Positions 2,413 to 54,944 of a stretch of 64,000 nucleotides of DNA are shown piece by piece. The DNA comes from Candidatus Limnocylindrales bacterium (lineage in GTDB: Bacteria > Chloroflexota > Limnocylindria > Limnocylindrales > CSP1-4), in NCBI GenBank assembly GCA_038239115.1, contig JBBSFD010000012.1, positions 3,347 to 67,346 of the forward strand. The letters are read 5' to 3'. The position numbers and the translations under genes are program-made. Below the pieces are notes generated by a model. The model worked only from the letters and a program-made list of their open reading frames with translations, was not told the DNA's origin and did no database searches. The stretch's first letter is position 1. Each line of letters opens with the position of its first letter.

Positions 2413-3508
2413 TCGATTCGACGCTTGGCTGGAGAAGGGCCTGCGTGACCTGGAGCGGGCCGTGCCAGTCGGTCAGTCGGTCGCCGGCAGGCTTGATCCT
2501 GCCACGCTGGTTCGCGTGTCTGGCAGGGGCACACGCTCGCTGCGCCCAGTAGGCTCCCTGATTGTTGCGGCCGTGGCAATCGTGATCCTGGCGATCCTCC
2601 TTCCCAGGTTCAATGCTGCGGTCCCGGGAGCCTCGCAAACGACCGCGCCGAGCCTCAGTCCGACCACAACAAGCCCCACGCCCGCGCCTTCATTCTCAGG
2701 CGAAGTCACCCACCAGCTGGGATCCCTCGCGATCGTGACCCCAACCAGCTGGCAGCTGATCGCCCCGTACAAGTGGAACGATCGGACGGGGCCCTTCCTG
2801 TTCGTCAGCAGTGCGGCTATTGCCGACCCGTGCCCGACCTCGAACCTCGGGCCGAAATGCATGACGCCTCTCGCCCAGCTCCCACCAGATGGAATCGTGG
2901 TCACGTTCTCCGGATTGTCCGCCACGAGTGGGCCGAATCCGTCCCCAATTCCGGTCGACGAGCCAGTAAATGGCGCATGCGCCACGATGCGCGGCGATCG
3001 CGAGCTCGGTGTCCGCATCCAGGGGTTTGACGTAGTCGCGTGCCTGCGTGGACCTGACTTCACCGCGAATGAAACCGCATTCGATCGGCTTGTTGCCTCG
3101 ATCCCGGGCCTGCCTCCGCCCCATGGAACAAGCGTCACGACGGCGTTCACCATTCCAGGGACTGGCATCACTCTGTCGCCGCCGGGCAACGTGGTCCCGG
3201 CAACTTCGAGCGACGCGGCCTACGGGCTTTGCCTGACCCCTGGCGGGGCCGCCTGCCAGCCGGGTCCGCCGACGAGCATCGTGCTTGCCCGCATCACCGA
3301 CACGGGATCCACGCTCGTCAAGCCCGGCATCCTGGTCTGGGCGATGGGCTGGATCGGGGTCACCACCTGCGTCTTCTCGGGCGGTGGACCACCCGGTCCC
3401 GGCAGTTCGCCTGTCGTGGCGACGAGTCAACCTCTGTGCGACGCGTACGACTTCATCGATGCCACTTCCGGAAAGTTCATCTTTGAGTCCGCGGGTCCGC
3501 ACAACTAG
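2390..3508 (+). CDS. putative anti-sigma factor / membrane-anchored Pro/Thr-rich extracytoplasmic protein
   Basis: Start (TTG 2390 or GTG about 2405) overlaps the sigma stop codon. Short cytoplasmic N-terminus, single TM helix (LIVAAVAIVILAILL), then a P/T/S-rich linker and Cys-containing exported domain. This is the usual position and topology for an ECF anti-sigma. Confidence 0.5.
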   Translation: MRSSPVTDRFDAWLEKGLRDLERAVPVGQSVAGRLDPATLVRVSGRGTRSLRPVGSLIVAAVAIVILAILLPRFNAAVPGASQTTAPSLSPTTTSPTPAPSFSGEVTHQLGSLAIVTPTSWQLIAPYKWNDRTGPFLFVSSAAIADPCPTSNLGPKCMTPLAQLPPDGIVVTFSGLSATSGPNPSPIPVDEPVNGACATMRGDRELGVRIQGFDVVACLRGPDFTANETAFDRLVASIPGLPPPHGTSVTTAFTIPGTGITLSPPGNVVPATSSDAAYGLCLTPGGAACQPGPPTSIVLARITDTGSTLVKPGILVWAMGWIGVTTCVFSGGGPPGPGSSPVVATSQPLCDAYDFIDATSGKFIFESAGPHN

Positions 3509-39733: not shown

Positions 39734-41440
39734 CTAGAACAGGCCGACGATGTTCCCGCTGGCGTCGATGTCGATGCGCTCGCCACCCGGAATCGAGGGC
39801 AGCCCGGGCATCGTCCGCATCTCGCCGATGAGCGGCGTCACGAAGCCTGCCCCGGCCGAGAGGCGGACATCGCGGATCGGGATGGTGAAGCCGCTGGGTC
39901 GACCCTTCAGGTTCGGATCGTGGCTGATCGAGTACTGGGTCTTGGCCATGTTCACCGCGAGATGGCCGTAACCGAGCTCCTCGTACAGCTTGAGCGCCCG
40001 GCTGGCCGCCGGCAGGTATTCGACCCCGGCCGCCCCGTAGACCTCGGTCGCGATGGTTTCGATCTTCATGCGCAGTGAGGCTTCGTCGAGGTACAGAAAA
40101 TGGAAGTCAGGCGAGCCGATCTGGGCCGTGTCCCAGACGGCCCGGGCCAGCGCCTCGGCCCCCGCCCCACCGTCGGTGAAATGGGTCGATACGAGCGCGT
40201 CGCGGGCGCCGGCTGCCAGGGCCACCTCCTGGATCGCGGCCACTTCGGCGGGCGTATCGGTGGGGAAGGCGTTGATCGCAACGACCACCTCCACGCCATA
40301 GCTCCGGACGATCTCGATCTGCTTAGCCAGGTTCTGGGCGCCCAGCCGAACCGCCTCGACGTTCTCCTCGAGCAGGGCCGGGTCGAGCGGCTTGCCGGCC
40401 ACGATCCGACCCACGCCGCCGTGCATCTTGAGCGCGCGGATCGTGCCCACGATGACCGCCGCATCCGGGCGCAGGCCTGACTGGCGGCACTTGATGTCGA
40501 AGAACTTCTGGGCGCCCATGTCGGCACCGAAGCCGGCCTCGGTGCACACGATGTCGTTGGTCACCAAGGCCAGCCGGTCGGCCAGGACCGAGTTGTTGCC
40601 ATGGGCGATGTTGGCGAACGGCCCGCAATGGACGAAGGCTGGTCCACCCTCGAGCGTCTGGAGCAGGTTCGGCTTGATCGCGTCGACGAGCAGCACGGTC
40701 ATCGCTCCGGCAACCTTGAGATCCTCGAGGGTGACCGGCTTGGCATCGCGGGTATAGGCCACGACGACCCGGCTGAGCCGGTTGCGCAGGTCGTGGATGT
40801 CGGAGGCGAGGGCCAGGATCGCCATCACCTCGGAGGCGACCGTGATCATCGTCTCGGTTTCGCGCGGGATCCCGCCATCGCGGCCACCCAGGCCGATGAC
40901 CACCTTGCGCAGAGCGCGATCGCTGATGTCCACGACCCGTGGCCAGGTGATCGTGAGGGGGTCGATGCCGAGTGGATTCTTGTGATAGAGGCTGTTGTCG
41001 AGGAAGGCGGCCGCCAGGTTGTGGGCCGCGCCGATGGCATGGACATCGCCCGTCAGGTGCAGGTTGAAATCCTCCATCGGGATGACCTGGCTGTAGCCGC
41101 CGCCGGCCGCTCCACCCTTGATCCCGAACACCGGCCCGAGCGACGGCTGGCGGATCGTGACCGCGGCCCGCTTGCCGATCCGGTTCAAGCCCTGGACGAG
41201 GCCCACGACCGTGGTGGATTTGCCCTCGCCCAGGGGCGTCGGGGTGATGCCGGTGACGAGGATGTACTTGCCCTTTGGGTTAGAAGCCTCCAGGCGCTCG
41301 ATCGCGGCCAGCGGGACCTTGGCCTTGCGCGGGCCGTACTGCTCGATCTCGTCGTCGCGCAGGCCCAGCTCGCGGGCGATATCGATGATCGGCCGGGGCG
41401 TGACGGATCGGGCGATCTCGAGGTCGGTGGGAAAGGTCAT
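39734..41440 (-). CDS. fhs: formate--tetrahydrofolate ligase
   Basis: Full-length FTHFS collinearity (TPLGEGKSTT P-loop, GGAAGGGY, FANIAHGNNS). Start MTFPTDLEI. The upstream part of the 1080-aa track ORF is artefact. Confidence 0.9.
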   Translation of the reverse strand: MTFPTDLEIARSVTPRPIIDIARELGLRDDEIEQYGPRKAKVPLAAIERLEASNPKGKYILVTGITPTPLGEGKSTTVVGLVQGLNRIGKRAAVTIRQPSLGPVFGIKGGAAGGGYSQVIPMEDFNLHLTGDVHAIGAAHNLAAAFLDNSLYHKNPLGIDPLTITWPRVVDISDRALRKVVIGLGGRDGGIPRETETMITVASEVMAILALASDIHDLRNRLSRVVVAYTRDAKPVTLEDLKVAGAMTVLLVDAIKPNLLQTLEGGPAFVHCGPFANIAHGNNSVLADRLALVTNDIVCTEAGFGADMGAQKFFDIKCRQSGLRPDAAVIVGTIRALKMHGGVGRIVAGKPLDPALLEENVEAVRLGAQNLAKQIEIVRSYGVEVVVAINAFPTDTPAEVAAIQEVALAAGARDALVSTHFTDGGAGAEALARAVWDTAQIGSPDFHFLYLDEASLRMKIETIATEVYGAAGVEYLPAASRALKLYEELGYGHLAVNMAKTQYSISHDPNLKGRPSGFTIPIRDVRLSAGAGFVTPLIGEMRTMPGLPSIPGGERIDIDASGNIVGLF

Positions 41441-42360
41441 GGACCGTTGACTCCAGCTTTGAGGGCCGATGTTGAGCGCGCCGCGCCGGCCTGGGCGCGG
41501 GCGGCCTGCAGGACGTGGGTCATGAGCAGGGCGTTGGTGACCGGGCCAACGCCGCCGGGAACCGGCGTGATTGCCCCAGCGACCAGGCGGGCCGAGTCGA
41601 AGTCGACGTCGCCCACCAGGACCTGACCGGCCGGGCCCCGATCGACCATGTTGATGCCCACGTCGACGACCGTCGCCCCCGGTTTGATCATCGCGCCGGT
41701 GACCAGCCCGGGCCTGCCCGCTGCAACCACCACGACGTCGGCCGTCGCCAGCATGACGGCGAGGTTGGGCGTGCGCGAGTGGCAGATCGTGACGGTTGCG
41801 TCCTCCCGGGTCAGGAGGATGGCCGCCGGCCAGCCGACCACGTTGGACCGGCCGATGACCACGACCTGCTTGCCCCTCAGCTCGATCCCCGAGCGCTTGA
41901 GGAGCTCCACCGCGGCCTGCGCCGTCGTCGGCACGAAACCCGGGTGGCCGAGCAGGAGCCGGCCGGCATTGAGGGGATGAATGCCATCGACGTCCTTGGT
42001 CGGGTCGATTGTGTCGGTCACGGTCGACAGTGGGATCGACTTGGGCAGCGGCATCTGGACGATGATCCCGCTGACCAGCGGGTCGCGGTTCAGCTCGATC
42101 AGGTGGTGTCGGAGCTGCATGGCCGATGCCTGACCCGGAATCTCGACGAGGCGACCGTCGATGCCGGCCGAGCGACAGCCGCGCAGGATCTGCTGGAGGT
42201 AGACCGCCGACGGCGCATCGGCGCCGACGATCACCACGCCCAGGGCCGGAGGGTAGCCGTGATCCACCTTGAACTGGGCGACCTCGGCCTGGACCGAGGC
42301 GCGAATATCCGCCGCGATCGGGCTGCCCAGGAGGAGTCGAGCCTCGCTCGGGTGGGTCAC
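41437..42360 (-). CDS. folD: bifunctional methylenetetrahydrofolate dehydrogenase/methenyl-THF cyclohydrolase
   Basis: GIIVQMPLP, VVVIGRSNVVGWP, VDVGIN and PVPGGVGPVT motifs of FolD. GTG start inferred at 42360. ATGA overlap with fhs. Confidence 0.85.
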   Translation of the reverse strand: MTHPSEARLLLGSPIAADIRASVQAEVAQFKVDHGYPPALGVVIVGADAPSAVYLQQILRGCRSAGIDGRLVEIPGQASAMQLRHHLIELNRDPLVSGIIVQMPLPKSIPLSTVTDTIDPTKDVDGIHPLNAGRLLLGHPGFVPTTAQAAVELLKRSGIELRGKQVVVIGRSNVVGWPAAILLTREDATVTICHSRTPNLAVMLATADVVVVAAGRPGLVTGAMIKPGATVVDVGINMVDRGPAGQVLVGDVDFDSARLVAGAITPVPGGVGPVTNALLMTHVLQAARAQAGAARSTSALKAGVNGP

Positions 42361-42365
42361 TCCGA

Positions 42366-43049
42366 TCAGGCGCCCTCGGCCAGCGCCGCGCGGAGCTCGC
42401 TCGAGGCCACCACCTCGCGGGTCGCCAGCGATAGCTCGTCGATCTCGCCGAGCAGCTCGCCGACCCGGGCCGACATCGCGCTGCTGAAGTCCGGATCGCC
42501 CACGGCAGGCAGGTTGACCAGCACGTTGGCCCCGGCCCCATGCGCAGCCGCCGTTGCGAGCAGGCAAGCCACGGCGAGATCGCTCGATGCGTTCTGGTTG
42601 CTCCGGCCGGCCAGGGCCTGGGCTGCCTCGACCACCTCGCGGCAGGCCTCGACGCAGGCCAACGGCACGTTCGAGGCAGCTCGGGCGGCGGAGCGCAGGG
42701 CCATCTTCCGAGCAGCCTGCTCGTCGTCCGTTTCCTTGGGCTGGCGCAGCGCGGCGGCGAAGACAGCGTACGCGGCCGCGTCGTCGTCGGCCAGGCGCAA
42801 GAGGCGCTGGGCAAGCTCCCGGCCGGCGGCCCCTGCTGAGGCGTGAGTAGCGGCATGGTCGGCGTACTTCGGCCGACCCTCCGACAGGGTCGCCACCATG
42901 GCCACCAGGCTCGCGGCCAAGGATGCTGCGACGGCAGAGGCGCTGCCTCCGCCCGGAACCGGCTCGGACGACGCAAGGGCCTCGACGAACCCGGCGACGG
43001 TCACGTCCGCGAAGCGCGCCGGCTCGGCCGATACAGGTCCGCTGGGCAT
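42366..43049 (-). CDS. formiminotetrahydrofolate cyclodeaminase / methenyl-THF cyclohydrolase family (FTCD C-terminal-like) protein
   Basis: All-helical protein. VAGFVEALASSEPVPGGGSASAVAASLAASLVAMV matches the cyclodeaminase domain signature. First gene of the cyclodeaminase-folD-fhs operon. Confidence 0.7.
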   Translation of the reverse strand: MPSGPVSAEPARFADVTVAGFVEALASSEPVPGGGSASAVAASLAASLVAMVATLSEGRPKYADHAATHASAGAAGRELAQRLLRLADDDAAAYAVFAAALRQPKETDDEQAARKMALRSAARAASNVPLACVEACREVVEAAQALAGRSNQNASSDLAVACLLATAAAHGAGANVLVNLPAVGDPDFSSAMSARVGELLGEIDELSLATREVVASSELRAALAEGA

Positions 43050-49203: not shown

Positions 49204-49407
49204 GTGGGCGTCATCATCATTCGGGAGATGGTCGGGACCAGCCCGCGCTCATGGAGCGACGCGGCTCGCCAGGCCGTTGCGACCGCTTCGAAAACCGTCC
49301 GGAATATCCAGACGGTGGATGTCGTGAAGTCGAGCGCGGTCGTAGAGAACGGCGAGATCGTCGAATACCGGGTCGAGGTCAAGATCGGCTTCGAGTACGA
49401 GGACTGA
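49204..49407 (+). CDS. dodecin-family flavin-binding protein
   Basis: VGVIIIREMVGTSPRSWSDAARQAVATASKTVRNIQTVDVVKSSAVVENGEIVEYRVEVKIGFEYED is collinear with bacterial dodecins (VGTSP...W..A...A......V.VKIGF..ED). GTG start after GGAGAGG. Confidence 0.6.
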   Translation: MGVIIIREMVGTSPRSWSDAARQAVATASKTVRNIQTVDVVKSSAVVENGEIVEYRVEVKIGFEYED

Positions 49408-49479
49408 TCGAGGATTGATCGCCTGGATTGAGCGGCGCAGACCGCGCAGCTAATCGGTTGGTGAGCGCCGCCGAGGAAG

Positions 49480-52400
49480 ATGCCCGGCATGGCACTCCCT
49501 CGCAGCGAAAGCGACCGCCGCCAGCCGGATGAGTCGGAACGCTCGTCCGTTGACAGGCGCGCGACGGCGTCCGTATCGTTCCCCATCCACCGGACAGCCC
49601 AGCCGCCTCCCGGCGGTCATATCCCGGTGGCAGTCGGTCCGGGGCGGACACAACCCGGTGCGTCCCCGAATCGCGAGTCGGGGGAGCGCGTGTCTGAGTT
49701 CCCGCTCCAGACAGCCAAGGTCCAGCGTCCCGCCCTGCGGGTGGAGACGTTGCAGCGCGACCGGTTGCTTGACTGGCTGACCGCCCAGGAGCAGTCGCGG
49801 GTGATCCTGATCAGCGCCGAAGCGGGCTACGGCAAGACCACCCTGCTCGCGGACTTCTCCCGGCGGACCCGCCGTCGCGTGCTCTGGTTCCGGATCGACG
49901 AAGGCGATCGGAGCTGGGTCAGCCTGGTCCGCTACCTGCTCGCAGCCGGCCAGGAACTGGATCCGGAGTTCGGTCTCGAGACTGGCCGCCTGATCGAACG
50001 CCTCGGCTCACCCGAATCTCCCATACGTGACGAGATCGTGGCCAGTCTGATCCGCGACTTCAGCGTGCTCGGACTCGGCGGCGGTGCTCTGCTGATCCTG
50101 GACGACTATCACCAAATCGACGATGTCGCGGAGATCCGCGAGATCCTCAATGAGTTCGTGGCCCGTGCTCCGGAGCGACTGACCATCGTGATCGCGGGAC
50201 GGCGTCCGCCGAGCCTGGCGCTAGCCCGGCTGCGCTCGATCGGCGCCGTGGCTGAGCTGCGCACCGACGACCTGCGCTTTGACGTGACCGAGTCGGAACG
50301 GCTGTTTCGGGTTACATACGGACGCGCCCTGGACCAGGACGTGCTGGCCGATCTGACCCGCCGAATCGATGGCTGGGCAGCCTGCCTGCAACTCGTTCAG
50401 GCCGCTCTCCGAGACCGATCCACCGCCGAGATCCGGGAGTTTGTCGCTGACCTCAGCGGCGCAACCGGCGACCTCCACGACTACCTCGCCGAGGAGGTGG
50501 TCGGCGACCTCGATCCGCCGATCCAGCGATTTCTGATGCGGGCCTCCCTGCTCCAATCGATCTATCCCAAGCTGGCCGCCGTGGTCGGCGAGGTCAACGA
50601 CCTTGACGCGGGCAGGCTCGTCGCCGAAACCGAGCGGATTGGCCTCCTCAGCCGCCGAAGCGACGCGCCGGCAGGCGGACGGCGTTTCCACCCCTTGGTG
50701 AAGGAGTTCCTCGAGGCTCGTTTGCGGCGGGAGGCGGGCGAGGACGAAATCATCCGCCTACATCGGCTGATCGCCATCCACGCCCGCGCCACCGACTGGC
50801 GGCTGGCGGCCCACCACTTTGCCGCCGCCGGTGACATCGACGACCTCCATGCACTCGTCGAGGCCTCGTTGCCGTCGATCATGGCGGCGGGCGACTTCGC
50901 CATCGCCGAATCGTTCATCGATCGCATGCCGGACGGCCGGACCTGGCCGATCTTCGACATCGTGCTGTCGCGCATGGAGCTCCATCGCGGCCGACCAACC
51001 GATGCTGTTCGCCTGGCCGAGACGGCGGTCGCGGGCCTGGGATCAAGTCCTGGTAGCCCAATCCTCGACCAAGCCCTCGCGAACCTGACCTCGGTCTATT
51101 ACCAGGCCGGCCTCTTGAAGAAAGCGCGCGAGACCGCAACAAACCTCTATCGGGATGGCCCAAATGGCCAATTCGCGAACATCGCGAAAGCCACCGCCGA
51201 CGTCATCGATTCGTCGATCGATGGTTCGCTTACCGCTCCAGTCGATGTCCTCTACTCGATGGCGACACAGCAGCAAGCCGGCGGGGATCTCCATTACTTC
51301 GGGATCACCCAACTCAATATCGGCGAATTCGAGCGCGCACGAGGCAACCCAAATGCCGCACTCGTGGCGGCGAACGAGGCCGTGGGCGCACTCAGTGCAA
51401 GCTCGGCTAGCCACGAGGTGCCCGCGGCTCGCCTGATCAAAGCTTGGGCCCAGGCGCATCTCAATGAGATGGAGGGTGCACTCTCTGAGGTCGAGACTGC
51501 GCTCAACTCCGAATTCCGGCTGGTCCGTGACGAAGTCCGGATCGAAGCGGCGTCAATTCTGCTCACGTATGCGGACGCCGCCAAGGCCAGAGCTGTTCTT
51601 GCACGCGTGGGCAACCTCGAAGCCCTCGCACCCGATGTTCTGGATCAATACGCCGTTTCCATGGCGGAGCTGGACATCACAGACGGGCTGTACGAGAACG
51701 CTCGTAGTCGACTCGATAGGCTCGCGATCGACGAGCCCCATCGGGAGCCGGGGTTCAAGGCTCGGGTAATGACACTACGTGCAATCTCGGCAGCTCTATG
51801 CGCTGATCCCAGGGCGACCGATCTTCTCGAGGCGGCGCTCCATCAGGCGATGCTACAGGGTGCGGGCAGGTGGGGAACTGAGGCTGCGATAGCGCTGCGT
51901 CTAGTTCGTCCCGAAGGTGACCTCGAGGAGTTGGTTCTGACCCGAGACGACGCGATTGAGCCGTGGTTGAGCGCCATTGCCGAGCTCGTCCTCACGCGTA
52001 ATGAGAGCGCATCTCCTGCTGTAGACCGTCTGGTCGCGGAATCTGCGCTTTCGAGGCCCAGTCGATGGCGGCCTGCCCTGCGACGGTCCATGGGCGCGGG
52101 CAGTCGGGCATCTCGAACAATCGCAGCGAACCTCCTCGAGTTGGTTGGCGAAGCCCAGGACGTACCGCTCCTCATTGCGTTTGCGCATGAGGCAAGGCTC
52201 GGTCAAGGCGCCAGGTTTGGGCGTGACTTGGCGCGCCGGGTGGCAAGTCCAATCCATGTCGCCGACCTGGGCCGCGTAGGCATTCAGATTGGTGACCGCG
52301 TCGTCGAAGGCGAGTCAGTCCGCCGCAAGGTGCTCGCATTGCTGTGCTTCCTGATCACGCGTCCGAACATGTCGGCGGCCCGAGACCAGGTCGTCGATGC

Positions 52401-52961
52401 ACTTTGGCCGGATCAAGACCCAGCGGCCGCTTCGAACTCCCTGAATCAAACCGTGTACTTCCTGAGGCGGTCTTCGAGCCCAAATACGCCGAGGATCAAT
52501 CGCCCGGGTACCTGAGACACGAAACCGACTTGCTTTGGGTCGATGCCCGGCTCGTGACAGCACAGTCGCTGGCGTGCCGGCAGTGGATCGACGAAGCTCG
52601 TGGTTCGTCCTCCTGGGCAATCGTCGAGTCACTAAGTCGAGGCTACAAAGGTCGCTTCGCCCTCGACTTTGAGTACGAAGAATGGTGCGCGACCTACCGC
52701 GACAATCTCCATGCCTCGTACCTCGAAGTCATTGAGAAGGCGATCGACGACGAGATACAGGCCGCGCGATTCGGCCGAGCCATCGAGCTTTGCAGGCGGG
52801 CGTTGGATGTGGACCCGACCTGTGAGCCCATTGAGCGCCAACTTCTTCGGACCTACCGAACGACAGGTGCACATGCTGCGGCTGAGGAGCAGTACCGCCA
52901 CTACGCCGCGACCATGTCGGAGGAGCTCGGGATTACCCCGCCTCCGCTGGCAGATCTCTAG
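49480..52961 (+). CDS. large STAND/AAA ATPase - helical repeat - OmpR-type winged helix - BTAD regulator; apparent frameshift near 52466-52472
   Basis: P-loop VILISAEAGYGKTTLLADF and hhhhDD Walker B LLILDDYHQ (MalT/AfsR-like NTPase). Long helical/TPR-like middle. C-terminal wHTH (RRKVLALLCFLITRPNMSAARDQVVDALWPD...LNQTVYFLRR). The BTAD continuation (EPKYAEDQSPGYLRHETDLLWVDARLV...LGITPPPLADL) is in the +1 frame (ORF 52344..52961). Confidence 0.6.
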
Positions 52962-53429
52962 GCTCCCACGCGGGGCGTCGACCTTTATAGCCGCCTTACT
53001 CTCCCGGAGCGGATAGGTAAGGTGCCGTATTGACCGGTCTAGAGCGTCCTCCCTATAGTCCGGTCGACTTTCCAGTACGGAAGTACTAGAAAGCAATGTC
53101 AAGTTCGGACGCGCTGACGCACCACCTGAAATGGGCACTTGGGGTGGGGCCGAGCGACTGGTGCAACCGGCGAACACATCAAGTCTGGGCCGGCTCCCGC
53201 TCGGAGCCGGAGGAGGAGTCCTATGAAGGCCGAAGCCGCAATCAAGGGCTGGTAGTCGAGCACGATTGTGCTTACTCGACTGATTCGTGGGGTCCTTCTG
53301 ATCAGCACCGTCCTGGGGACCCTGCTGGCCGGAGGGGCCTCACTGAGGGTGTTTTAGGACGTTGGTCCTATTCCGGGGAGGACCCGGAGGGGTTAGATTC
53401 TCTGCGCCGACTGAATAAGCGGAACTGAG

Positions 53430-54944
53430 ATGACTAGATCCCTAGCCCTTTTCATCGCTGGGCTCGTGGCAGTCAGCGCAATCGCGCTGGTAGCCGCGAG
53501 CCTTCTATATGGATTCGACGCGCGGATCGCGATCGTCGTAGATAGCCGCGCGTCCGAGGGCGTAGGCATCGCCTTTGGCCTCGCGTTCTGGACCGGCATC
53601 ACCCTTGTAGCGTCTGCCCTTCCGGTTCGCTTCTCTGGCGGCGCCATCGTCGCCGTGTCGACGGCGCCAATTCTCGCGGCAATGAACCTCGGTGGCCCAG
53701 CTGCGGCTGGGTGGGTCGCTCTGATCGGTTCTACGGAGCTCCGAGAGCTGCGCGGCGATATTCCCTGGTTCGGAAGTCTTTCGAACCATGCGGGGATTGC
53801 CTTGCCGGCGGTGATCGCTGGCTTCGTTCTCCGAGCCCTCGTGCCAACCTCTGGCGACCCGTTCGCCGACCTATTAGGAACAGGGGTGGCAGCCGGTGTG
53901 TTCTTTGCGATGAACTTCGTCTTTGCCTCGGCGGTGCTTGCCCTTCGGACGCGGGTCCCGATTTGGACGGTAATCCGGGGGAGCGATCGAGGTCTTGCGC
54001 TGAGTTTCATGGCCTTGGCGCCTCTCGCCTGGCTCATGACCCAGACATACGAGAAGGTCGGCTGGTGGACGACAGCCCTGTACGCGTTGCCGCTGTATAC
54101 GATCCGGCTGGCCAACGAGCGCCTGGTCGAGATGCGCGAGATGTTCACCCAGACGATCGGCGCCCTGGCCGAGGCCGTGGACAAGCGCGACCCGATGACC
54201 GCCAAGCACAGCCACCGGGTCAAGGAGATCGCCTCGGACATCGGCCGGGTGATGCACCTGAGCTCACGCGACATGGAGGCGCTCGAGTGGGGCGGCCTGC
54301 TCCACGACGTAGGCAAGATTGGCGTCCCGGACCACGTCCTGCTCAAGGAAGACCGGCTGACCCGCGATGAGCGCCAGGTCATGAACTCGCATCCGGTCCT
54401 GGGCGCCCAGATCATTGCCCCTGTGGTCAAGCTGGCCCCCGAGCTGCCGATCATTCGCCACCACCACGAGTGGTACAACGGCTCGGGCTACCCCGATCGG
54501 CTCCTGGGCGAGGAGATTCCGCGGCTGGCCCGGGTCCTCCACGTCGCCGATGCCTTCGAGGCCATGACCGCCGCCCGGCCGTACCGCAAGAAGCCCCTCA
54601 CGGTGGAGCAGGCGCTCGGCGAGCTGCGCAAGTTCGCCGGGATCCAGTTCGACCCCGAGGTCGTTGACGCGTTCGTCAAGACCGACTGGGTGGAGGGCGT
54701 CCCGGATCCGGGCCGCTCGATCGAGCCCCGGCCGGTCCCGATGCTCGCGGCGGCGGCGGGCCGGATGGCGGCCAGTAGCAGCGCCCCGGCCGCCATCGCC
54801 CCGGCCACCCTGACCCCGGCCACGATCACGACGGGCACGATCACGACACACACCCTCGCCGATGGCGGCATCGAGACTCCGGCAGCCCCGATCCCGTTCG
54901 CGGCGCAGCCAGAGGCTGGGCCCCGGGCCATCGACGCCGGCTAG
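53430..54944 (+). CDS. HD-GYP domain c-di-GMP phosphodiesterase with N-terminal polytopic membrane domain
   Basis: About 230 aa of TM helices, then HD-GYP: HSHRV, LLHDVGKIGVPD, HHEWYNGSGYP. Confidence 0.85.
   Translation: MTRSLALFIAGLVAVSAIALVAASLLYGFDARIAIVVDSRASEGVGIAFGLAFWTGITLVASALPVRFSGGAIVAVSTAPILAAMNLGGPAAAGWVALIGSTELRELRGDIPWFGSLSNHAGIALPAVIAGFVLRALVPTSGDPFADLLGTGVAAGVFFAMNFVFASAVLALRTRVPIWTVIRGSDRGLALSFMALAPLAWLMTQTYEKVGWWTTALYALPLYTIRLANERLVEMREMFTQTIGALAEAVDKRDPMTAKHSHRVKEIASDIGRVMHLSSRDMEALEWGGLLHDVGKIGVPDHVLLKEDRLTRDERQVMNSHPVLGAQIIAPVVKLAPELPIIRHHHEWYNGSGYPDRLLGEEIPRLARVLHVADAFEAMTAARPYRKKPLTVEQALGELRKFAGIQFDPEVVDAFVKTDWVEGVPDPGRSIEPRPVPMLAAAAGRMAASSSAPAAIAPATLTPATITTGTITTHTLADGGIETPAAPIPFAAQPEAGPRAIDAG

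Follow-up and report, generated by a model that had tools for sequence, protein, structure and literature searches.

When the gene for a large transcription regulator is found divided between two overlapping reading frames, is the gene broken, is the shift between the frames programmed, or is a base simply missing from the assembled sequence? This question is raised by a locus of Candidatus Limnocylindrales bacterium (Chloroflexota; GenBank assembly GCA_038239115.1, contig JBBSFD010000012.1), of which a stretch of 64,000 nucleotides, positions 3,347 to 67,346 of the forward strand, was analyzed; this whole stretch is referred to as the window, and all coordinates are counted from its first letter. 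Two open reading frames (ORFs) lie on its plus strand, ORF A (49480..52515, 1011 amino acids) and ORF B (52344..52961, 205 amino acids, in the frame one base back from that of ORF A), with an overlap of 172 nt. Both had been described in the original prediction, made from the sequence alone, with the BTAD (bacterial transcriptional activation domain) placed in the second ORF, and both are present as claimed (BTAD E 1.4e-15 in ORF B). Together, ORF A and ORF B encode a single regulator. The explanation that accounts best for the whole, and that we consider highly probable, is that the locus holds one gene for a STAND activator of 1090 residues, and that the gap between its frames is most likely an assembly error and not a programmed event.

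When one base is added anywhere in 52468-52470, the two frames fuse to read ...NSLNQTVYFLRRVFEPKYAEDQSPGYL..., and insertions at these positions are the only ones that restore LRRVFEP. Translated from GTG 49690, the repaired protein has 1090 amino acids and a single terminal stop. Left unrepaired, the frame of the first part continues through 14 junk codons to TGA 52513-52515, and the product as sequenced would comprise 941 amino acids (927 native and 14 junk), without the wing of the winged helix and without the BTAD. The parts of the gene around the break are the following:

49690..52470, plus strand: first part of the coding sequence, residues 1-927, from the GTG start through the MalT-type nucleotide-binding oligomerization (NOD), arm and winged-helix (WHD) region and the helical sensor to the end of the recognition helix of the output winged helix (NSLNQTVYFLRR)
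52468..52470, plus strand: site of the missing base, in the second-arginine codon CG[N], whose last base is shared with GTC (valine)
52470..52961, plus strand: second part of the coding sequence, residues 928-1090 and the TAG stop, in the -1 frame, with the wing of the winged helix and the BTAD (about 52563-52946)

The second part stays open up to the PPLxxL stop that the orthologues use as well. In a DNA alignment with 11 orthologous loci taken from GTDB species representatives, a single one-base gap separates the window (AGGCG-GTCTTC) from the others (CGN GTN TTY), and the missing base belongs to the second arginine codon, at its third position, where the orthologues have G, C or A. More than 100 homologues (43-70% identity, 100% coverage) are in a single frame; our protein alignments A1 and A3 read LNQTVYFLRRVFEP at this point, and every intact member in them has LNQTVYFLRRVFEPxY..D.SPGY, with N916-R927 forming the longest invariant run of the protein. 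The position of the frameshift given in the original prediction is therefore right to the base, and restoring one base gives the reading of every intact homologue. The "G-run" that it held responsible is only GG, or GGG if the lost base was a G, while the shift needed is indeed -1, one base lost, as it had implied. Its suggestion to look for a single-frame version among orthologues is answered by the 11 loci and the more than 100 homologues, and the outcome that it named as refuting, orthologues without any C-terminal BTAD, is not observed, as all intact orthologues carry this domain. The context, as it reads in the window, is not a long homopolymer and would amount at most to GGG reduced to GG. 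According to the AlphaFold model, the break sits where the recognition helix (911-929) ends, ahead of the wing hairpin (948-958) and the BTAD. The segment beyond the shift has a ratio of nonsynonymous to synonymous substitution rates (dN/dS) of 0.09-0.14 against seven orthologues, and its 3 private substitutions at otherwise invariant columns are in the same range as those of intact orthologues. Because this segment shows no decay, the lesion is either not real or very young. Apart from the gap, the gene is intact throughout and subject to purifying selection.

Anything besides an assembly error or a recent real deletion seems to us highly improbable, and of these two we lean towards the former, a consensus error of the metagenome assembly. 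The closest-relative metagenome-assembled genomes (MAGs) are Nanopore-only and were made with Flye and one Medaka round (PMC12313526). The copies of this gene in Nanopore-only MFD MAGs from the same lineage have 1-3 frame switches at other positions, and locus L006 has two in the essential gene dnaB; artefactual frameshifts thus do occur in such assemblies. Such isolated switches in sister lineages, dnaB included, speak against the competing view of a real, very recent one-base deletion, which would have left, at the level of a strain or population, a fresh pseudogene or a truncated 941-residue sensor/NTPase without output. The same is true of the downstream segment, where no second lesion and no relaxed constraint is seen (dN/dS about 0.1, 3 private changes), so that a real deletion would have to be extremely young. 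Nevertheless, we give such a deletion a substantial chance, if one short of even, and several observations weigh against an error. The gap is the sole ortholog-supported frameshift between 45 and 59.6 kb of the window (about 14 kb) in a screen based on stop-to-stop ORFs of all loci, which was noisy and was filtered by hand, and the other inspected ORF and operon junctions look normal and clean; the assembly is therefore not generally error-ridden, which somewhat favors a real mutation. Long homopolymers are the classic site of long-read indel errors, and the site in question is not one. The copies of relatives are often disrupted, including that on the JGI contig L018, in which homology ends at residue 1013; this suggests that the gene is dispensable and often lost, and a non-essential regulator is a plausible target of inactivation. 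Conspecific sequence over the site was not found in GTDB genomes, JGI metagenomes, metagenome contigs or the protein collection: the exact DNA pattern with an optional extra base had 0 matches in the metagenome contigs, protein-guided scans reached at best 76% identity in GTDB genomes and 72% in JGI metagenomes with nothing conspecific, a look-up of the identical dodecin encoded upstream returned only a sister MAG and two short contigs that end before the frameshift site, and the collection of 5.8 billion proteins held no self match. The activation mechanism that belongs to our overall explanation, moreover, is drawn entirely from analogy with MalT and AfsR. On present evidence, the frameshift has no demonstrated biological meaning.

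A programmed frameshift, which the original prediction had entertained as a curiosity, would give a truncated and a full-length regulator by -1 frameshifting or by transcriptional slippage, and the 172-nt frame overlap together with the perfectly conserved downstream frame could be taken as its signs. However, the junction is in one frame in 11/11 orthologous loci and in every intact homologue, no slippery X XXY YYZ heptamer is present at or near CTG AGG CGG TCT, and the downstream 97 nt fold no better than shuffled sequences (z = -0.05). Slippage of RNA polymerase would require a homopolymer of sufficient length, which is absent, and the whole window contains neither an A6 nor a T6 run. With in-frame orthologues, no heptamer and no downstream structure, we reject this option, to which we attach next to no probability. 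We think just as little of a naturally split gene in which the sensor-NTPase of ORF A and a separately translated BTAD protein would be two subunits; in-frame starts do exist just past the ORF A stop (TTG 52530, GTG 52554), but the break lies inside the winged helix, between recognition helix and wing, and leaves neither product with a complete DNA-binding domain, and none of the relatives among the 11 loci has a split at the same position.

Read as one gene with a base most likely lost in assembly, the locus encodes what, judging from profile matches and a predicted structure, is a STAND transcription regulator composed of a MalT-type NTPase, arm and winged-helix region, a helical sensor and a C-terminal SARP output:

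49711..50934, plus strand: MalT-like nucleotide-binding oligomerization module, residues 8-415 (NCBIfam MalT, PDB, Foldseek)
49825-49842, plus strand: Walker A motif, GYGKTT
50092-50106, plus strand: Walker B motif, LILDD
50194-50205, plus strand: AGRR motif
50371-50394, plus strand: GWAACLQL motif
50686-50700, plus strand: FHPLV motif
50935..52239, plus strand: all-helical TPR-like repeat sensor, residues about 416-850 (AlphaFold, TPR_12, profile, Foldseek)
52240..52562, plus strand: predicted OmpR-type winged helix (residues about 851-958), which the frameshift breaks behind residue 927

The N-terminus of ORF A is matched by the Pfam domains AAA_16, AAA_22 and NPHP3_N, the first two near their cutoffs. 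Residues 8-415 match positions 4-402 of the NCBIfam MalT model with E 2.8e-60 and a score of 204.3 bits, which is below the equivalog cutoff of 537; the alignment includes the arm/WHD region, in which YHPLF of MalT corresponds to FHPLV. The domain WHD_MalT (PF25873) is precomputed on all close homologues, and our local Pfam copy gave no PF25873 match on the window protein. The P-loop NTPase with GYGKTT and LILDD of the original prediction is confirmed at the positions listed above, and Walker A, Walker B, the arginine of the sensor-I-like AGRR, GWAxxLQ and the histidine of HPLV (H334) are invariant in 31 family members; given this invariance, the nucleotide switch would be expected to work.

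The long helical middle noticed in the original prediction is borne out by the AlphaFold model, in which about 25 consecutive helices form a solenoid over residues 335-835, with a predicted local distance difference test (pLDDT) score mostly >90; the sequence itself gives a weak TPR_12 match and a profile match to the TPR region of Rap phosphatase. A Foldseek search with the model placed MalT (8bob_C) first (1.4e-14), followed by 6mfv, a STAND protein with a TPR sensor (1.1e-11), Apaf-1 and Avs4. By sequence, the PDB search returned MalT (8bob, E 2.9e-37), AfsR (8hvr, 2.2e-5) and EmbR (2fez, 8e-4), and a family profile lifted the MalT match to 9e-56. The mean pLDDT of the whole model is 86, and its order is an alpha/beta NTPase, a helical arm/WHD, the helical solenoid, and a winged helix with six helices.

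The output end was likewise recognized in several ways. Residues 868-1084 match the SARP model in the NCBIfam search (E 4.6e-6), and the SARP module, residues 851-1090 of 1090, is thus C-terminal. Trans_reg_C matches the end of ORF A in part, over positions 8-56 of the 77 in the profile; the repaired protein reaches 25.2 bits against a cutoff of 26.2, with a match that breaks off at position 56-60. The AlphaFold winged helix consists of three strands (855-873), three helices (879-890, 898-905 and 911-929) and the wing hairpin (948-958). This topology is consistent with an OmpR-type winged helix, as is the alignment to AfsR and EmbR, which runs unbroken through both this domain and the BTAD. 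The BTAD (PF03704, cutoff 22.1) scores 58.4 bits in ORF B and 53.7 bits (E 3.9e-14) in the repaired protein. A LuxR/GerE helix-turn-helix (HTH) was not detected, with no GerE match at E ≤ 1 in a Pfam search of the repaired protein. The MalT and SARP models and the PDB matches together support the earlier view of a C-terminal winged helix-turn-helix and BTAD, in which the layout resembles that of MalT, the output is of the SARP type and the order of AfsR is reversed.

The original prediction had treated this architecture as a curiosity, a view that the databases do not sustain. Used as a query against 5.8 billion proteins, the repaired protein gave 1472 matches at E < 1e-5; the best 120 of these are almost all full length (about 1080-1170 amino acids), 43-70% identical and in a single frame, and the nearest database proteins have 62-70% identity over 100% of the length. 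When the 246-residue SARP module was searched with HMMER against 1.84 billion cluster representatives (50% identity), at least 243 matched at E ≤ 1e-30, and in all 150 listed of these 243 the module is C-terminal, ending ≤ about 30 and mostly ≤ about 10 residues from the end of the protein, in full-length proteins (about 1020-1190 amino acids) and in N-terminally cut fragments alike. Where a name is attached to them, the proteins are called "BTAD domain-containing putative transcriptional regulator" at NCBI (Candidatus Limnocylindrales, Chloroflexota MAGs) and "MalT / SARP family" at JGI. The published SARP classes (small, medium, large and SARP-LAL) all have an N-terminal SARP module (PMC10972967). 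In the literature searched, we found no paper on the C-terminal-SARP architecture and no experimental study of proteins of this family. The architecture defines a common, pipeline-annotated family of soil Chloroflexota (Limnocylindria), a variant of known STAND activators, to which the window gene belongs as an ordinary member.

The order LexA, DnaB, zinc-ribbon protein, dodecin, regulator, HD-GYP protein and MFS protein is kept in 11/11 loci, and from this conserved block the regulator can be taken to be a vertically inherited core gene of the lineage. The dodecin gene (49205-49407, plus strand, 67 amino acids) has a GTG start after GGAGGAG, and its protein is 100% identical to those encoded by the sister MAG (L001/L013) and by two soil contigs from JGI (L014, L015), which indicates that close relatives of the host are present in public soil metagenomes.

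MalT is activated by an inducer together with ATP. By analogy with MalT and AfsR, the regulator would rest as an ADP-bound, auto-inhibited monomer; binding of a signal to the sensor solenoid would allow ADP to be exchanged for ATP, followed by oligomerization through the NTPase module, and the oligomer would set the SARP modules side by side on tandem direct repeats near the -35 element of a target promoter, where the aligned modules may recruit RNA polymerase. In AfsR, ATP binding and not hydrolysis activates, and the NOD and TPR regions inhibit the SARP effector, an inhibition that ATP relieves (PMC10936776). A 941-residue product without wing and BTAD should not activate transcription. SARP regulators recruit RNA polymerase from heptamer direct repeats that reach into the -35 region; inspection by eye of the two conserved promoters flanking the gene revealed no convincing SARP-type direct repeats with 11-nt spacing.

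One of these promoters bears on where the protein begins. The start of ORF A assumed earlier, 49480, is probably 210 nt too far upstream, and the true start is most probably GTG 49690 and not ATG 49480. A Shine-Dalgarno sequence, GGGGGAG, stands at 49680-49686 ahead of this GTG, most homologues begin at the same position (M/VSEFPLQ), and the segment upstream contains the elements of a non-coding 5' region:

49550..49579, plus strand: sigma-70-like promoter, TTGACA-18-TATCGT (promoter scan 10/12 matches, 0.0 expected from shuffles)
49580..49689, plus strand: conserved 5' leader of about 100 nt with predicted hairpins (RNAalifold)

Both hexamers, 18 nt apart, are invariant in an alignment of 13 orthologous loci. 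Across 49480-49689, the first 70 codons of ORF A, the synonymous rate (dS) is 0.34-0.49 and dN/dS is 0.44-0.91, compared with a dS of about 1.0-1.4 where the gene encodes the NOD-WHD region; with this pattern, the first 70 codons evolve like constrained non-coding DNA. Because the -35 hexamer is perfect, the regulator's own promoter is probably not activator-dependent. The consensus fold of the leader has -32.8 kcal/mol (RNAalifold), and its last predicted hairpin (CCCCGA...TCGGGG) would pair with part of the Shine-Dalgarno sequence; with compensatory changes in only 2/30 pairs, we regard the leader structure as a lead and not as a result. An invariant GCAGCTAATCG motif was also observed at about 49445-49456, upstream of the regulator promoter. 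For annotation, this calls for merging the two ORFs, or flagging them as one frameshifted gene, and for moving the start to 49690.

Apart from its reading frame, the gene is a mosaic of two parts in every locus when the window is compared with loci L001-L011 and L016:

about 51130..52961, plus strand: 3' block with saturated synonymous divergence and lower G+C at third codon positions (GC3), holding the frameshift site; it makes up the 3'-terminal 55% of the gene

In the part before this block (to about nt 51129) and in the flanks, the sister genomes compared (window/L001, L002/L009, L003/L016 and L007/L008) are 84-90% identical in DNA; four-fold degenerate sites agree at 0.58-0.82 in this part of the gene and at 0.53-0.85 in the flanking genes. 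Over the remainder of the gene, from about 51130, four-fold identity falls to 0.15-0.53, where the random level is about 0.3. This saturation covers the winged-helix region, with protein identity there remaining near 0.8. GC3 falls from about 0.80 to about 0.67 in all 12 loci, and does so sharply, at about residue 550 when residues are counted from 49480. The mosaic points to recombination with a deep allele pool (or gene conversion) or to a locally raised mutation rate.

The stretch 50001-54000 of the window has the lowest G+C of the 64 kb (0.62-0.64 vs about 0.70), coinciding with the 3' half and the riboswitch leader described below. Frame switches in the orthologous regulator of the Nanopore MFD MAGs number two in L001, two in L002, one in L006, two in L009 and three in L011, and are about 4 times denser in the regulator than in flanking genes in four of those MAGs (L011 excluded). 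Many assemblies have the orthologous regulator broken at differing positions, L008, L018 and L019 being listed too; beyond residue 1013 of L018, different DNA follows.

One could read the 3' half, that is, the second half of the sensor and the SARP output, as a hypervariable cassette that is frequently exchanged or hypermutating, because its synonymous sites are random between sisters, GC3 drops in 12 loci and disruptions recur; we consider this reading doubtful, with a small chance of being right. If it were true, the family would consist of NLR-like intracellular sensors that diversify rapidly and are coupled to transcription via a C-terminal SARP module; they would sense, for example, phage or strain-specific signals, and individual strains would repeatedly switch the gene off by frameshifts of the kind found in the window. 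The saturated 3' half is, in our opinion, the most promising lead from this locus.

Downstream of the regulator, a c-di-GMP-II riboswitch (RF01786; c-di-GMP, cyclic di-GMP) was found at 53098-53180 on the plus strand, with 54.3 bits against a gathering score of 53.5. It lies within the 468-nt gap between the regulator and the gene of a MASE9/HD-GYP phosphodiesterase (53430-54944), and is present at the same place in 7/8 orthologous loci with up to 67.4 bits:

L001, 7037-7119: RF01786
L002, 7024-7107: RF01786
L006, 7014-7096: RF01786
L008, 7023-7106: RF01786
L009, 7034-7117: RF01786
L010, 7028-7110: RF01786
L011, 7034-7116: RF01786

In such a feedback loop, c-di-GMP would control the very enzyme that degrades it. 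In the same region (about 53020-53430, plus strand), a conserved promoter-like TTGACC...TATAGT stands upstream of the riboswitch, with an invariant GGATAGGTAA just upstream of it and a perfect palindrome, CTTTCCAGTAC-N4-GTACTAGAAAG, just downstream. The riboswitch is followed, ahead of the HD-GYP gene, by a Shine-Dalgarno sequence, a conserved mini-ORF of 10 codons (MK.E....KGW*) and a short ORF for a hydrophobic peptide with the end ...LAGGASLRVF*. Elsewhere in the window, the stop-to-stop ORF 39734-43000 (minus strand, 1088 amino acids) was considered as a paralogue of the regulator and rejected, having no similarity to it; its C-terminal half has formate-tetrahydrofolate ligase-like motifs (FGIKGGAAGGGY...), and its N-terminal half could represent a second gene or an open frame that is over-extended.

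Switches of the STAND/NLR type are modular, and the C-terminal-SARP clade to which the window protein belongs, which is well populated, shows that a STAND scaffold can drive a SARP effector from either end; the clade thereby offers a non-actinobacterial model for oligomerization that places SARP domains on DNA. Against this background, the protein shares with MalT of Escherichia coli and the LAL regulators (large ATP-binding, LuxR-type) the N-terminal STAND NTPase with arm and WHD_MalT, the helical repeat sensor and the C-terminal position of the DNA-binding output, and the Walker A/B and HPL motifs of MalT are conserved in it. Unlike these regulators, which end in a LuxR/GerE HTH, it carries a predicted OmpR-type winged helix and a BTAD; no similarity in sequence is detectable between its sensor and MalT domain III, and its 204 bits are far under the equivalog cutoff of 537, so that it is not MalT itself.

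With AfsR and other "large SARPs" of Streptomyces and with EmbR (Mycobacterium), the protein has in common an effector in which a winged helix, predicted here, is followed by a helical BTAD, its C-terminal 215 residues aligning to AfsR 60-273 (E 2.2e-5) and EmbR 27-246 (E 8e-4); as in AfsR, this effector is fused to a STAND NTPase and a TPR-like sensor, and the order of secondary structures in the AlphaFold SARP module is that of the published AfsR SARP topology (PMC10936776). In contrast to AfsR, in which it is N-terminal, the SARP module here follows the sensor at the C-terminus, the NTPase is MalT-type and not NB-ARC (NB-ARC E 0.25), the lineage is Chloroflexota and not the Actinomycetota of AfsR and EmbR, and no link of the window gene to a biosynthetic cluster was seen. 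Of the Chloroflexota BTAD/MalT-SARP family named at NCBI and JGI, finally, the window protein is a member with the same synteny, and it differs from the family only by the missing base.

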